Source: Candidatus Thorarchaeota archaeon (GTDB lineage: Archaea > Asgardarchaeota > Thorarchaeia > Thorarchaeales > Thorarchaeaceae). Taken from it: DNA of 17,363 bases. The number at the start of each line of letters is the position of its first letter. The first letter of the stretch is position 1. This document shows, in pieces, positions 6,523 to 17,363 of the stretch. Location of the stretch: NCBI GenBank assembly GCA_048884785.1, contig JBHLQM010000067.1:1-17363 (forward strand), given 5' to 3'. A model generated the notes under the pieces. It saw only the letters and a program-made list of their open reading frames with translations, had not been told where the DNA came from and did not search any database. The translations under genes and the position numbers were made by a program.

Positions 6523-7413
6523 TTGGAAAAGAATGTGATATACCGACCAACTGGCAGACATCCTCCGCCCCTCACAAATGTGGCAGTTAGTCCAAACGGA
6601 AATCGAATCGCATGTGGAACAGCAGATGCGAACATCCTTATCATCAACTCCAAGACTGGAAAACCGATTAGAGCGCTGACCGGACATGAATCAATTATTT
6701 CTGCATTGATGTTTATCCAAGGCGGAAGTCATATACTCTCCTCAAGTTGGGACACTACTGCACGCACATGGAGTAGTACGAAAGGAATCCAAGGCGAAAA
6801 CACACTCAGCCATACAGCAGAGATCAAGGCACTTGCTGTTCATACTGAAACAAGTAGAGGTGCTGCGGGGACCCGAGATGGGCTTGTGAAAGTGTTTTCG
6901 CTTGATAGTCTAAAATGCATACGAAATCTATTAGCTCATCAAAAGGATGTTTCAAATTTAACATTCACGACTGATGGATCTCAGCTCGTTACGGCATCTT
7001 GGGATGGCTGGGTGAAACTCTGGGACATGAGCAGCTACGAGATTTTGAAGAATGTTATGAGACAAAAAGAGCGCATTAGATCAATGGTCCTGTCCCCAGA
7101 CAATGCACGAGTCTATCTTGGGCTTCACAATGGTGTCATCAGAACGGTATCGCTGAGTAATGCACGAGATAAGAGCGACCTTCATGGCCACAAGGATATA
7201 GTGAGTGCTTTAGCGATAGATCCCTCAGGAATGTATCTTGCCTCCGGCAGCTGGGACCGAACTCTAAGAATCTGGAATCTCGATGATGGAAAAGAGATTA
7301 TCATGCAGAAACTTGGTACTGGTGTTTCCGATCTTGCCTGGAATCCGAAACAGAGATACATATACTCTACAGATTTTTCTGGATCACTCATCGAATGGAG
7401 CATGAGCAACTAG
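6523..7413 (+). CDS. Stand-alone WD40 repeat protein (~7-bladed beta-propeller)
   Basis: Repeats such as GHESIISAL...SSSWDTTARTW, AHQKDVSNL...TASWDGWVKLWD and GHKDIVSAL...SGSWDRTLRIWN. GGTGA RBS at 6512-6516 precedes the TTG start. Confidence 0.92.
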   Translation: MEKNVIYRPTGRHPPPLTNVAVSPNGNRIACGTADANILIINSKTGKPIRALTGHESIISALMFIQGGSHILSSSWDTTARTWSSTKGIQGENTLSHTAEIKALAVHTETSRGAAGTRDGLVKVFSLDSLKCIRNLLAHQKDVSNLTFTTDGSQLVTASWDGWVKLWDMSSYEILKNVMRQKERIRSMVLSPDNARVYLGLHNGVIRTVSLSNARDKSDLHGHKDIVSALAIDPSGMYLASGSWDRTLRIWNLDDGKEIIMQKLGTGVSDLAWNPKQRYIYSTDFSGSLIEWSMSN

Positions 7414-8123
7414 CTTTTCAAAAGCCGAACATCAATATTGAGAAAGCCTTCTAGATTCCACTTCAGTCGCACTCTAGTGTACTTCTGTTTATTATCTACA
7501 ATCTGTTGCAGAACATCGGCATCCTTATTCCTGCTTCTTTTGTCGAAGGGTATTGACAACTCATTTCCTTGTGCTGTTAGAAGACTAATGCCTCTGTCAT
7601 CAATATCAACAAACATCCCTGAAACTATCATTGTGCCATATTTGAAGTATGGAGGTTTTTCTCGCATACTAACAATGATATTTGCCAGCTTTCTATACCT
7701 CGCCACCTCAGCAAAAGCAGTCCTAATCAAATCATCAACATACTGTGTGGCGAATCGAGTCGCAAACTCCTCCCGCATCTCCTCTGGGTTCATCTTCAGG
7801 TTTCCAGCTTCCTCTTTCGCCTCAGTGGTAGTCCTGGCAAACTTAGTCACAATAGCAAAGTTAAATCTGCGCCCAAAATCAAGAGCCTGCCTAGATTCTC
7901 CACTCTGAGTCACAAAAACGAACTTACTTACAATATCATCGAGAAGCAATTCAGAAGCTCTCTTTCTGCTCGTTAAGTGATTCTTGACAATTGTTTTCAG
8001 TGCAAAATTTGTCGCTTCAAAATACCTCCGAAGCTCCTGTGTCATGATATCCTGCTTCTCTCTGGTCAGTGTTACGCTTGCAAGCTTCAGGATGTCAACA
8101 GATGCCTCAGGCATTTTCTTCAC
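7410..8123 (-). CDS. Hypothetical protein resembling the N-terminal WED/REC lobe of TnpB/Cas12f, lacking RuvC
   Basis: Uninterrupted 237-aa ORF (alternative ATG at 8114). Segment order and residue pattern match my recollection of IS200/IS605 TnpB N-termini. No G[IV]D[LR]G RuvC-I motif and no CxxC zinc finger. The ORF is secure; the family call is by eye. Confidence 0.6.
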   Translation of the reverse strand: MKKMPEASVDILKLASVTLTREKQDIMTQELRRYFEATNFALKTIVKNHLTSRKRASELLLDDIVSKFVFVTQSGESRQALDFGRRFNFAIVTKFARTTTEAKEEAGNLKMNPEEMREEFATRFATQYVDDLIRTAFAEVARYRKLANIIVSMREKPPYFKYGTMIVSGMFVDIDDRGISLLTAQGNELSIPFDKRSRNKDADVLQQIVDNKQKYTRVRLKWNLEGFLNIDVRLLKS

Positions 8124-8176
8124 AGATGTTCAAAGAGACCTGAACACTTAATCAATCTAATCGTTTCAAGAACTAC

Positions 8177-9208
8177 TCAGAGTTGCTGAGCAATGAAGCG
8201 TGCTTCTCCAATCCCTCGCTGTACTCCCTCAGGCAATAGGTCGAAAGCGCCATATTGGAGCATCACTTGTTCATAGAATTCTGGTTCGAGTTCTCTGAGC
8301 TTGGCCATTAGCGCCTCATTCTCCTCAACTGGATTCCCATGAAGTGCAAGTAGTGCCATGCCGATCATAGAGATTGCTCGACGCATCTCTAGAATCGCCA
8401 GTTCGAAATCCCCATTCAGCGTCTGAGACTGAGCTCCATAGTAATATCTCTGTGCTTGAGTAAGGTGTGCACCAACTGGTGACTCAGGAGTGATATCTTC
8501 ACTCCGTTCGAACAAATCTATAGACTTCTCTAGCCACCCTCTCACATCTTCAAGTATTGCAAGGAGCTTTCCCTCGTCCAGTCCTTTCAACCTGAATGTC
8601 CGAAGAAATAGTTTGTATACAGTTGGGTCCAGCATTCTTACATCTGATAGTACTTCTGAAGGCTTGATTATGCTAAATACATTGTTTCTCATAAGGACAA
8701 GCCTTCCTAAATCAAAAATTCCTCTTCTCATCTCATGGACGGCACTCACAACATCACCAGATGCAAGTAGTTCATCAGAACGTTTTAGGCCATTCAGTGC
8801 CTTATGCTTCACATTCTCCATGTTTCTCTCAGTCCATCTGTATGTCGCCGCCTTCTGGAGCCATGCTTTCACAATCCCTTCTCTATCGAATTCCACGCGC
8901 GCGTCCTTGAGTCTACTAATCACTCCTGCCACGGTGAAGGGATGGTCTTCTTTATCATCGAATATCTCCTCGATTTTTGCTGGAGTTAGAAAATCCATGT
9001 CAACGACAACTCCCCTATGTTCAGCAAGCAATCGTGCAGGAGCCTCATCGCCAGCCCAGATTATGACTAGATCTAAATCCGAGTTGGTAGTGGCTGTCCC
9101 TTTTACAACTGACCCATAGGTGAATATCCCCTTGACTTCGCTTCGCTTCTTCCACTCATTCACTGTGTCCTTTAGTGCATTGTCAAACTTCCGGTGGAGA
9201 TCCATCAT
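8177..9208 (-). CDS. Pol-beta-superfamily minimal nucleotidyltransferase fused to two HEPN-like helical domains
   Basis: YGSVVKGTATTNSDLDL (GS-x9-SDxD) with a third Asp in VVDMDF. Duplicated helical unit: GDVVSAVHEMRR / GDFELAILEMRR. ATG at 9208 preferred; the ORF track starts at 9232. Confidence 0.8.
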   Translation of the reverse strand: MMDLHRKFDNALKDTVNEWKKRSEVKGIFTYGSVVKGTATTNSDLDLVIIWAGDEAPARLLAEHRGVVVDMDFLTPAKIEEIFDDKEDHPFTVAGVISRLKDARVEFDREGIVKAWLQKAATYRWTERNMENVKHKALNGLKRSDELLASGDVVSAVHEMRRGIFDLGRLVLMRNNVFSIIKPSEVLSDVRMLDPTVYKLFLRTFRLKGLDEGKLLAILEDVRGWLEKSIDLFERSEDITPESPVGAHLTQAQRYYYGAQSQTLNGDFELAILEMRRAISMIGMALLALHGNPVEENEALMAKLRELEPEFYEQVMLQYGAFDLLPEGVQRGIGEARFIAQQL

Positions 9209-9367
9209 CTTCAGTGAGCACTTCCAAATCAAATTCCGCTGTGTAATGTCTGCTATGAGATACTCCTGAGAATAAGAATCTACACCTTATTTACCCTTTC
9301 AATACCAGCGGGTAGGGAGCAATAAATGAAATTTTGTTTCAATCCACGAAATCTGGATCTATTATTC

Positions 9368-10285
9368 CTAGGTTTTGCAGGTTTCATCAATGCACTTAGC
9401 TGTGTAGCTAGTTGCGCAACCTTCATCACAAAATGTGTAGGCTTTGCCTTGAATTATCTTTGTAAGTGCAGAATCCAAATTGAGAGGGTCTCCGCAGAAA
9501 GAACATACAAATCTCATGTCCGCGTCTGATCCACAACACGGAGTCAGAACCATTTTCTTTAGGTTACGCTGAATTTCCAGAAATTCTTCATTATCTGATA
9601 GAAAGATGTATGACATTCCTGTGAGTAGATCACTTAATGCAGTAGCATCAAGATTGACCTCTTTGAGATGTGCAGCAAGGTACTCCGTTGCGTTGTCAAG
9701 CATTTCTATCTGATTTGAAATTAGAGTTTTGAACTCATTTTCTTTTTCAGCAGTCATGCCAACTTCGAAGCCCTTTCCAAACAAGGTCAGATACTGGTCT
9801 ATGATTTCACCACTCAATTTTGAACCTGAAACAACAAACACCTTTGCGGCCCGTCGATAATAGACACCACGCTTGCTTGAAAGCTCTTTTCCTTCAGCGT
9901 CAATCTCACGTTCAGGATATTGCTCAATAAGGCCCTGTTCAAGTAGTTTTGGGAGGTGGTAGTAACAATTGTATTTGAACTTCCTCTCATCTACCTCCTC
10001 TCCATCTATTTCGGCAATGAATTCCTTGACATACTTGACTATTTCAGGTACCGTCATCCAAAACCGTTTCTCTACCTTTTCCCCAACAACCTTGCTGGCA
10101 ACAATCTTTCCGTCCTTATCAACAGTTGCTTCTATAATCTGCTTAGTATCATCGGACCCGTGTCTTAGTGCAACCAGAATTGCACGTCTTACAGGGTCTA
10201 AGAACGAGTCTACTATTTCCGGATTTGTTATCGACATATAACTGCGAATTTTGGTCGCTGGCAGGTCAGGAACGGCCTCTGTCAT
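9368..10285 (-). CDS. ArsR-like winged-helix transcriptional regulator with C-terminal TRASH/YHS metal-binding domain
   Basis: DPVRRAIL...MTVPEI...YYHLPKLLEQGLIE...YYRRAAKVF wHTH pattern. C-terminal CSFCG-x-GKAYTFCDEGC is the TRASH/YHS signature. Confidence 0.75.
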   Translation of the reverse strand: MTEAVPDLPATKIRSYMSITNPEIVDSFLDPVRRAILVALRHGSDDTKQIIEATVDKDGKIVASKVVGEKVEKRFWMTVPEIVKYVKEFIAEIDGEEVDERKFKYNCYYHLPKLLEQGLIEQYPEREIDAEGKELSSKRGVYYRRAAKVFVVSGSKLSGEIIDQYLTLFGKGFEVGMTAEKENEFKTLISNQIEMLDNATEYLAAHLKEVNLDATALSDLLTGMSYIFLSDNEEFLEIQRNLKKMVLTPCCGSDADMRFVCSFCGDPLNLDSALTKIIQGKAYTFCDEGCATSYTAKCIDETCKT

Positions 10286-10705: not shown

Positions 10706-10796
10706 TTCAGTCTTCAAATTATAGGGATCTTCATGGTCTTTTTTTCACCCGACATCCATTAATACCCGAAATCCTTCCACCAATCAGGTGTCCCTC

Positions 10797-11501
10797 ATGG
10801 CACGAAACGATGGAAGAGCAAACAATCAATTGAGACCAGTACAGATAACCAGAAACTATCTGAAGCATCCTGAGGGATCAGTGCTGATTTCAACCGGAGA
10901 TACAAAAGTAATCTGTACTGCTACGGTAGAGGAGAGCGTGCCGGGATGGCTCAATGGCTCCGGAAAAGGCTGGGTCACAGCAGAGTATGGTATGCTTCCA
11001 CGTTCGACAAATGAAAGAACTGGTCGCAACCGCGTTTCTGGACGAAGTCAGGAAATTCAGCGATTAATAGGAAGGTCTCTTCGTGCTGCTGTCTACCTGG
11101 AACGTATGGGCGAGAATACAATCAAGATTGATTGCGATGTGATTCAGGCGGATGGTGGTACACGAACAGCGTCGATCACTGGGGCGTATGTTGCCTTGGT
11201 TGATGCTCTGAATTATATGGTTGATATGGACCTGATACCTGATCTTCCCCTACGTGGAAATGTAGCTGCAGTCAGTGTGGGTCTTGTGAATGATGAGTGT
11301 CTTCTAGACCTATCCTATATTGAAGACGTAGATGCTCAAGTGGATATGAACATAGTCATGCTAGAAGATGAGTATGTTGAGATCCAAGGCACAGGTGAAA
11401 GCTCAACTTTTGACAGAGCCACTCTTGATGAGCTTCTTGGCCTCGCCAAGAATGGTATTGAAGAGCTCATCGCGATGCAGAACGCATCACTCATGAAGTG
11501 A
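10797..11501 (+). CDS. rph: Ribonuclease PH (bacterial type)
   Basis: [75 protein letters not shown] and EIQGTGE motifs. ATG at 10797 preferred over GTG at 10788. Confidence 0.92.
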
Positions 11502-16190: not shown

Positions 16191-17363
16191 ACTACAAATG
16201 CTGTACGGTCGCTGGTGGATGACTTGGTTGGCGAGCCGATGAAGGGCGTGACAAGCAGCGATATGCCGTGGGTAGTCGCATGAAGACGTTGATCCATGGG
16301 TCCCCGAATTGGACTTCCTAATGTAGGCTAATACCCTGCATTACTCCAATGTCAAAGTTGGAGAGGGTACGCTCCGAATTGAAGCATCTTAGTAGGGGCA
16401 GGAAAAGAAAGAAAATTCGATTCCGCTAGTACTGGCGAAAGAACGCGGAAAAGGCCAAACTGAATCCCAGCGCGAAGAGTGCTGGGAGATGTGGTGTACG
16501 GGCCAATGCAATTGCCGACGCACCTAAGACAAAGTCCTCTGGGACGAGGCGGCGAAGAGGGTGAAACCCCCGTAGTTGTAAAGTGCGGGCATGCAATTGG
16601 ATCCAGAGTAGCGCGGGTTGGTGATCTCGCGTGAACGTCCCAGTCGCAATCTGGGAAGCCTAAATACTACGCCAAACCGATAGTAAACTATGTAGCGCGA
16701 GCGAAAGTTGAAAAGTGCCGCGGGAGCGGGGTGAAAAGCACCTGAAACCAGCGATCTAAACAAAGGATGCCGATTAAAAGAGAAGACTCTCGATGAACGA
16801 AAGTGGAGTGATCCACGTGTAGGAATCGAGGTGATCGAATCGGCGTCATCCGTCTTGAAACACGGGCCAGGGAGTTTACGGACGTGGCGAGAATAAGGTA
16901 AAAACCGTAAGCGAAGGGAAACCGAAAAGCCCGCAGCCTTCGGGTGAGGGGCTACGTGTGAAAGCGCGTGAAGTCACAGCCGTGATACGAGAAGCCAGTC
17001 GATCTAGGCCTGGCCAGGGTGAAGCCGGGCGAAAGCTCGGTGGAGGCCCGATAGGGTTATGACGTGCAACTCTTTCCGTTGAGCTGGGCGTAGGGGTAAA
17101 AGGCTTATCTAGACTGGTGATTGCTCGTTCTCCGCGAAGTTGGTCGCAGCCAAGCTCCACTGGAGGTATCATGTGGTGTAGAGCACTTTTGGATCGGCGC
17201 GGGGGGCGTCAAGCCCTTCACCATCCCAAAAACTCCGAAGCTGCATGAACTGTAGAAGGTGGGAGACGGGTGCCCGGGGTAAGCCAGGCAGGCCGAGATG
17301 GGGAGAACCGAGAGTATGGTTAAGGTCCCTAAGTGCCGGATAAGTGCGGTGAAGAAGGGCGTC
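16190..17363 (+). rRNA. rrl: 23S rRNA, archaeal type, 5' portion (runs off window end; 5' end approximate)
   Basis: Conserved LSU motifs GGTGGATG, GCCGATGAAGGGCGTG, GAATTGAAGCATCTTAGTA, GGGTGAAACCCCCGT, CGTCTTGAAACACGGGCCAGGGAGT and TAAGGTCCCTAAGT in the expected order. Confidence 0.97.

Follow-up and report, generated by a model that had tools for sequence, protein, structure and literature searches.

In one family of Asgard archaea, a small gene that encodes the recognition lobe of a TnpB nuclease and nothing of its nuclease half has very probably been domesticated as a host gene. We describe it here from a 17,363-nucleotide stretch of Candidatus Thorarchaeota archaeon DNA (contig JBHLQM010000067.1 of assembly GCA_048884785.1; the whole stretch is referred to below as the window), where it lies on the minus strand between genes for a nucleotidyltransferase (NTase) and a WD40 protein; we call it the lobe gene. 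TnpB is the RNA-guided endonuclease of IS200/IS605 and IS607 elements, one of the systems called OMEGA, for obligate mobile element-guided activity (ISDra2 TnpB, PDB 8h1j/8exa), and its WED and REC domains, like those of Cas12f, read the duplex of the transposon-associated motif (TAM). The lobe protein keeps WED and REC, while the RuvC domain and the zinc ribbon (TNB) are gone. Our overall explanation, that this nuclease-less TnpB derivative acts together with the NTase on nucleic acid, has in our judgement about an even chance of being right. A sequence-only reading of the window had proposed a domesticated recognition lobe and a new route of domestication. This proposal is supported by what follows: the structural and profile matches to WED and REC that it needed were found, and the close homologues did not prove to be full-length TnpBs.

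The predicted fold of a recognition lobe

The minus-strand frame 7410-8123 is uninterrupted, as had been stated from the letters. Started at the GTG of 8123 it has 237 codons; homologue N-termini align at the ATG of 8114, making a product of 234 amino acids (aa) the likelier one. The TAG stop lies at 7410-7412, and the frame overlaps the convergent WD40 gene (6523-7413) by 4 nt at its end, as had also been read correctly.

An AlphaFold2 model computed from an alignment of 25 family sequences (predicted local distance difference test, pLDDT, 89.3; predicted template modelling score 0.85) places one strand at residues 9-16, helices at 21-149 and six strands with two short helices at 164-235. This reproduces the order of first strand, REC-like helices and WED-like strands that the sequence-only reading had described. 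We compared the model with 48,161 PDB representatives using VIA-align. Matches included AsCas12f (Z 13.9, root-mean-square deviation 3.5, 169 aligned residues, matched residues 0-210), a dCas12f (Z 13.8), a RhCas12f chain built for the N-lobe only (Z 13.4), the Mimivirus Fanzor2 (Z 11.7) and ISDra2 TnpB (Z 11.3, matched residues 1-176). The top 31 rows were Cas12, TnpB or Fanzor throughout, and the first unrelated row scored Z 5.1. With Foldseek, the top 39 rows were Cas12f, TnpB or other Cas12 proteins, with probabilities of 0.93-1.00 and E-values down to 1.6e-6; template modelling scores normalised by target were 0.64-0.65 for chains in which the N-lobe alone was built. By these matches (VIA-align Z 13.9, Foldseek probability 1.0) the lobe protein has the WED-REC-WED topology of the N-terminal recognition lobe, and it shares both fold and domain order with TnpB and the miniature Cas12f (AsCas12f, 8dzj/8j12) over the Z range 11.3-13.9.

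The alignment to ISDra2 TnpB ends at residue 176, before the first catalytic aspartate, D191; the lobe protein therefore stops just before RuvC-I. That the protein would end after its last WED strand, where RuvC-I should follow, had been anticipated from the sequence, and both this end point and the one in AsCas12f agree with it.

Sequence similarity to IS607-type TnpBs

At the sequence level the relationship is remote. Pfam, NCBIfam and PADLOC scans of the lobe protein gave no significant family, and a family-profile search of all PDB sequences gave a chance match only (E 0.27). A six-frame search of 400 Asgard genomes with a hidden Markov model (HMM) of the family matched the N-termini of two open reading frames (ORFs) of 444-459 aa from another Asgard family (E ~3e-5). 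Both are bona fide TnpBs with a TNB domain, and one adjoins an IS607-type serine recombinase. When the family was aligned by hhalign with ten Asgard TnpBs, the probability was 91.8% (P 7.5e-7) over 135 collinear columns, which run from the first WED strand via REC into the WED sheet. The similarity to IS607-type Asgard TnpBs is of the profile level, and neighbours in the ESM Atlas consist of archaeal TnpBs with an MJ0013-type N-domain and of short 'transposase (fragment)' clusters. The source of the lobe was thus probably, to judge from these alignments, an IS607/MJ0013-type TnpB. The same comparison with 17 TNB-containing Thorarchaeal proteins, mostly IS605/IS1341-type TnpBs, produced no signal (probability at most 0.9%), which indicates that the event is old and that the lobe is no recent derivative of resident elements.

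One IS607-type element of another Asgard family (L021:72-2010) carries a serine recombinase of 206 aa with a MerR-type helix-turn-helix (HTH) domain beside a 444-aa TnpB, and the N-terminus of this TnpB is among the closest sequence relatives that we found for the stand-alone lobe.

The lobe could also be no truncation product at all but a WED-REC module, independent or ancestral, that has always lacked RuvC and is akin to the one taken up by TnpB. A remote similarity to TnpB would be expected under such a scenario, and the search for longer relatives turned up no intermediate that carries a degenerate RuvC. However, the match spans WED and REC in the interleaved order that is TnpB's own, and the family is confined to a single archaeal family whereas TnpB is ubiquitous, so that a passage from TnpB to lobe is the simpler direction. 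We hold an ancestral module to be highly improbable.

A conserved family with a common end point

Word-indexed and exhaustive phmmer searches returned relatives of 176-240 aa, all of them hypothetical proteins; those with a named source come exclusively from metagenome-assembled genomes labelled Thorarchaeota or Hodarchaeota. The 25-sequence alignment has 29 invariant columns, with invariant stretches at L-S-V-T-L-T-R-E-K-Q after the first strand, at I-P-F-D-K-R-S-R-N-R and in the C-terminal hairpin. Arginine and lysine make up many of these columns, including positions of the second motif, which is by its sequence a candidate nucleic-acid contact, and the isoelectric point lies at 9.6-10.4 in 25 of 25 members. 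The invariant basic residues are R21, K23, R154, K195-R200, R217, R219 and R233. The C-terminal WED sheet closes with the conserved hairpin R-[VI]-R-L-x-W-N-x-E-G-F-x-[ND]-I-D-[VI]-R, and this hairpin is found within a few residues of the protein end in all members but one repeat-extended outlier. The window's protein shows the full family signature: a length within 176-257 aa, the two motifs, a C-terminal E-G-F-x-D-I-D-I-R and a position after an NTase of 340 aa. The outlier, a distant member of 377 aa (L067:5001-6134), has a C-terminal extension of ~190 aa made of ~40-aa repeats (R-P-W-E-V-L...), which is not RuvC-like by eye; its NTase and RNase PH context is that of the rest of the family.

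An apparent insertion of ~55 aa in the REC-like part had been suspected, and the alignment contains one of ~56 aa (residues ~69-125). It is limited to a subclade to which the window's gene belongs (genera g1, g3, g4, g7 and g9, with frames of 226-257 aa) and is missing from the majority form of 176-199 aa. It is modelled as additional helices, with a drop in pLDDT at residues 100-110. The IVSKF, IVTKF and FATRF echoes that had been noticed are present in the protein, by reading only.

The six-frame HMM search found the lobe gene in 79 of the 85 genomes of the window's GTDB family and in none of the 315 other Asgard genomes, where only the two weak matches to full-length TnpBs were obtained. 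Copy number is one in those 79 genomes except for our own assembly and for one genome in which the gene is split over two contigs. The ratio of nonsynonymous to synonymous substitutions (dN/dS, computed for unsaturated pairs by NG86) ranges from 0.09 to 0.26 in the core and from 0.18 to 0.25 in the insertion. The orthologue comparison suggested with the sequence-only reading thus turned out as domestication would have it in end point, NTase synteny and dN/dS below 1. Its expectation of synteny with both the NTase and the WD40 gene held for the former at every locus examined and failed for the latter in the most distant loci.

The additional copy in our own assembly is a second full locus on another contig (G000, contig C82, locus L006, 4631-10417) that comprises GGR, M28 peptidase and WD40 genes, a short-form lobe gene (7878-8486), the NTase and RNase PH, and ends in the 5' end of a 23S gene. 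As almost all other genomes are single-copy and the bin contamination is 5.4%, this contig is probably a contaminant from another Thorarchaeal genus rather than evidence of a paralogue.

Absence of the nuclease half

The D-E-D triad of a RuvC-like nuclease domain is absent, as the protein does not extend past its last WED strand, and a Pfam scan of it detected neither OrfB_IS605 nor the TNB zinc ribbon (PF07282). A search with the family alignment for relatives of at least 416 aa returned none, which by the method's own standard is weak evidence. Our own assembly (91% complete) has no PF01385 match and, for PF07282, a single sub-threshold match in a 62-aa frame. Of the family's 85 genomes, 65 do have TNB-domain genes, and copy numbers run from 0 to 43 per genome; in our own assembly none is above threshold. 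In line with the earlier remark that TnpA and insertion sequence (IS) ends are lacking, no transposase or IS context was seen, and the neighbours recur at every locus examined. Nor does the 3' end leave downstream room for a guide RNA, given the overlap with the WD40 gene; the absence of intergenic space for an omega-RNA had rightly been pointed out. Rfam matches in the locus are limited to rRNA, and no candidate guide RNA was found in a search for trans-encoded RNAs that was not exhaustive.

Short 'transposase (fragment)' clusters of the same fold are common in databases, and two such origins had to be considered: a TnpB remnant in decay, and one half of a split TnpB with its RuvC part at another site. 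Recent truncation or pseudogenisation is rejected by the common end point in ~80 orthologues, the single, syntenic copy and the dN/dS values given above; a split TnpB is rejected on account of our own assembly, which holds no RuvC or TNB gene above threshold. We therefore regard a fragment of either sort as extremely unlikely.

TNB-domain ORFs that far exceed TnpB in length, at 710-740 aa, are also present in many Thorarchaeal genomes (for example G392:C42:187607-187840, G349:C343 and G330:C288). They may be derivatives of TnpB, either fused or of a larger, Cas12-like type.

An invariant association with a nucleotidyltransferase

At every locus examined, an NTase gene (~340 aa) is followed by the lobe gene and preceded by a divergent RNase PH gene. 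This order holds at ~30% identity and also in members without a WD40 neighbour. In most orthologous loci 20-60 nt separate the NTase and lobe genes, as would fit an operon of two genes.

The NTase matches NTP_transf_2 in Pfam (8.7e-9), and its model (pLDDT 88) combines an NTase fold with a helical C-terminal domain. Foldseek gave E 3e-6 to 6un8, 1kan and 3c18 (uncharacterised NTase-like) and 5.5e-5 to HalB (9dbj). The protein resembles KNTase/ANT(4') and the Hailong protein HalB in its fold, in the helical C-terminal domain and in the G-S...D-x-D...D signature, but it has ~90 extra residues of helical domain, no defence-island or resistance context and no Hailong membrane effector. A Hailong-type defence system was considered and rejected: the effector is absent, the context is that of housekeeping genes, and PADLOC matches the generic NTase core alone.

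The signature, as G-S...D-L-D...D, is intact in 26 of 30 NTase orthologues. In a small subclade (L010, L011 and L012) the carboxylates are altered to D-L-N and the third D to N, and in a distant NTase (L068:3270-4307) S-D-L-D has become S-Y-L-D; sequences of this kind may represent a non-catalytic form or one of altered chemistry. Within the subclade, purifying selection acts on the NTase (dN/dS 0.08-0.14) and on the lobe (0.16). The lobe thus stays selected despite the loss of carboxylates, so that its role is not strictly tied to NTase catalysis.

One genome of the sister family (n=1; L069, G311:C23, 3841-5278) has an orthologue of the NTase (E 2e-82) and no lobe gene. A 102-aa predicted membrane ORF follows the NTase there, and the locus has no neighbouring RNase PH. 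An NTase locus thus probably existed before the lobe gene joined it.

On the other side of the operon, the 23S rRNA gene is downstream of RNase PH and co-directional with it in 7 of 7 loci checked (this window, L001-L003, L006, L067 and L068). In the window, other genes amounting to 4.7 kb stand between the two.

Possible functions of the lobe

The scenario that we favour starts with the lobe gene becoming fixed in the ancestor of one Asgard family (Thorarchaeota-type), as the second gene of an operon behind a KNTase-like NTase that would already have been present. From then on it would have passed by vertical descent, as a host gene in one copy. The basic lobe would bind nucleic acid by those surfaces with which TnpB and Cas12f hold the scaffold of the guide RNA and the TAM duplex, structured RNA being a more likely ligand than DNA. 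In the metabolism of RNA 3' ends it would be the partner of the NTase that recognises substrates or provides a scaffold.

The steps of this scenario differ in strength. Binding of nucleic acid is likely, in view of the uniform basicity, the invariant arginines and lysines, and a parent lobe that holds both guide scaffold and TAM duplex. Functional coupling to the NTase, suggested by the operon, falls just short of an even prospect. For RNA rather than DNA as the ligand, which the neighbourhood suggests, we would put the chances at about half. Two features, the constancy of the operon and its position beside RNase PH and the rRNA gene, suggest that the lobe takes part with the NTase in the metabolism of RNA 3' ends. 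In its most specific form, the lobe would be the RNA-recognition subunit of the NTase and direct 3'-end tailing or repair of a structured RNA (pre-23S rRNA or tRNA) in conjunction with RNase PH; we offer this tentatively, as a fairly unlikely possibility.

The lobe may instead be a guide-independent DNA-binding protein, a transcription factor or chromatin protein with no link to the NTase, whose former TAM surface reads a short duplex motif. In TnpB and Cas12f it is indeed WED and REC that read the TAM duplex (for TldR, see 10.64898/2026.09.22.753285), the protein is basic, the NTase of the sister family exists without a lobe, and the lobe is under selection where NTase catalytic residues have been lost. 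Yet the link to the NTase operon is invariant in ~80 genomes, the most divergent members included, the neighbourhood is RNA-related, and no DNA motif was identified. We judge a DNA-binding protein of this kind to be unlikely.

Another alternative is that the lobe is still RNA-guided, using a trans-encoded omega-like RNA in the manner of TldR or Cas12k without the RuvC scaffold, and might bring the NTase to a target. In Cas12f dimers the second protomer, often ordered in its N-lobe only, binds the single-guide RNA scaffold, and N-lobe-only chains (8dzj_B, 9nzt_B) are among the best Foldseek matches to the conserved fold of the lobe. What speaks against guidance is the lack of 3' intergenic room, of an RNA-family match in the locus besides rRNA and of a candidate RNA, together with the absence of the RuvC helices and aromatic residues that grip the guide and heteroduplex in TnpB and TldR (10.64898/2026.09.22.753285). 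We judge an RNA-guided lobe to be distinctly improbable.

Several observations also weigh against the favoured scenario of a TnpB-derived lobe working with the NTase. Sequence similarity to TnpB is confined to the profile level and was found with one TnpB clade, the TnpBs resident in Thorarchaeal genomes giving no signal. Two of the three catalytic carboxylates of the NTase are lost in one subclade in which both genes are still selected, and the NTase does not need the lobe, since it occurs without it in the sister family. Binding of nucleic acid by the lobe is a property that we infer. In TnpB and TldR, the heteroduplex and some of the guide scaffold are held by residues of the RuvC domain (10.64898/2026.09.22.753285), and an N-lobe by itself is without part of this platform. 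Finally, a guide encoded in cis has no room downstream, and rRNA is all that Rfam matches in the locus.

Comparison with known TnpB derivatives

Domestication of TnpB is known for Cas12 effectors, Cas12k, Cas12m, TldR and Fanzor. To our knowledge, every TnpB domestication described so far has kept the RuvC fold, active or dead. Compared with TnpB and Cas12f themselves, the lobe protein is without RuvC and the TNB zinc ribbon, and its gene is without a transposase partner and apparently without an adjacent guide-RNA region; rather than residing in an IS, the gene is single-copy, immobile and vertically inherited as part of the host genome.

The lobe resembles TldRs and other exapted, inactivated TnpBs (PMC10691335) in that nuclease activity is lost, the gene is immobile and a link to a particular host gene is conserved. 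However, a guide RNA and a RuvC, degenerate or truncated in part, persist in TldRs and in the catalogued exaptations (PMC10691335; 10.64898/2026.09.22.753285), whereas in the lobe the whole C-terminal half, and with it any degenerate RuvC, is missing. The known cases are moreover bacterial regulators located beside flagellin, oppF or sigma-factor genes, in contrast to an archaeal lobe beside an NTase. The GATase-associated mini-TnpB, a protein of ~280 aa reduced to WED and an active RuvC (PMC10691335), offers a second comparison: it too is immobile, contains a subset of TnpB domains and leaves no downstream room for a guide, but its loss is the opposite one, as the mini-TnpB has WED and RuvC without REC and the lobe has WED and REC without RuvC. 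A stand-alone WED and REC family is described neither in the TnpB exaptation census (PMC10691335) nor in the TldR structure preprint, and full-text literature searches combining TnpB with Thorarchaeota or with RuvC loss retrieved no description of one.

What is new here is a TnpB domestication in which the entire nuclease half has been discarded and which has been conserved over the lifetime of an archaeal family. Such conservation would show that the WED and REC lobe is an autonomous, reusable functional module. The short form, of ~180 residues, offers a natural minimal lobe for questions of RNA-scaffold binding, duplex reading and dimerisation, and the uncharacterised operon of NTase and lobe, with RNase PH and the 23S rRNA gene beside it, opens a way into Asgard biology that heterologous expression could follow. 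Should the lobe indeed be the RNA-recognition subunit of the NTase, a TnpB-derived module would be at work in RNA processing rather than on DNA.

Features of the window

Table 1. Position of the lobe gene, its segments and its neighbours in the window
Feature	Position	Strand	Basis or remarks
Lobe gene, intact ORF, RuvC-less WED and REC protein	7410..8123	-	ORF, homologue N-termini, fold
First WED strand, residues 9-16, followed by the invariant motif L-S-V-T-L-T-R-E-K-Q	8076..8099	-	Alignment and model
REC-like helical region, residues 21-152	7668..8063	-	Model; profile alignment to N-terminal helices of IS607-type Asgard TnpBs
Clade-specific REC insertion of ~56 aa, residues ~69-125	7749..7919	-	Alignment, model, dN/dS 0.18-0.25
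C-terminal WED beta-sheet, residues 153-237	7413..7667	-	Alignment, model, structural match
Near-invariant basic motif I-P-F-D-K-R-S-R-N-[KR], residues 191-200	7524..7553	-	Invariant columns
Spacer from NTase stop to lobe gene	8124..8176	-	Sequence; 20-60 nt in most orthologous loci
KNTase/ANT(4')-like NTase	8177..9232	-	Likely start ATG 9208, 343 aa; G-S...D-L-D...D present
WD40 beta-propeller gene, convergent	6523..7413	+	Neighbour in most loci, absent from the most distant
Bacterial-type RNase PH	10788..11501	+	Points away from the NTase operon; same orientation as the 23S rRNA gene
23S rRNA gene, 5' part	16191..17363	+	Directly downstream of RNase PH in related loci

The genes that separate RNase PH from the 23S rRNA gene in this window are a GyrI-like fusion gene, a gene for a 623-aa protein without Pfam match and, in the opposite orientation, an ORF of 232 aa. 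The minus strand also encodes, between RNase PH and the NTase operon, a 305-aa protein (9368-10285) with a weak ArsR-type HTH and a Cys-rich C-terminal domain resembling zf-FCS/YHS; this gene is missing from the corresponding position in three related loci (L001-L003).

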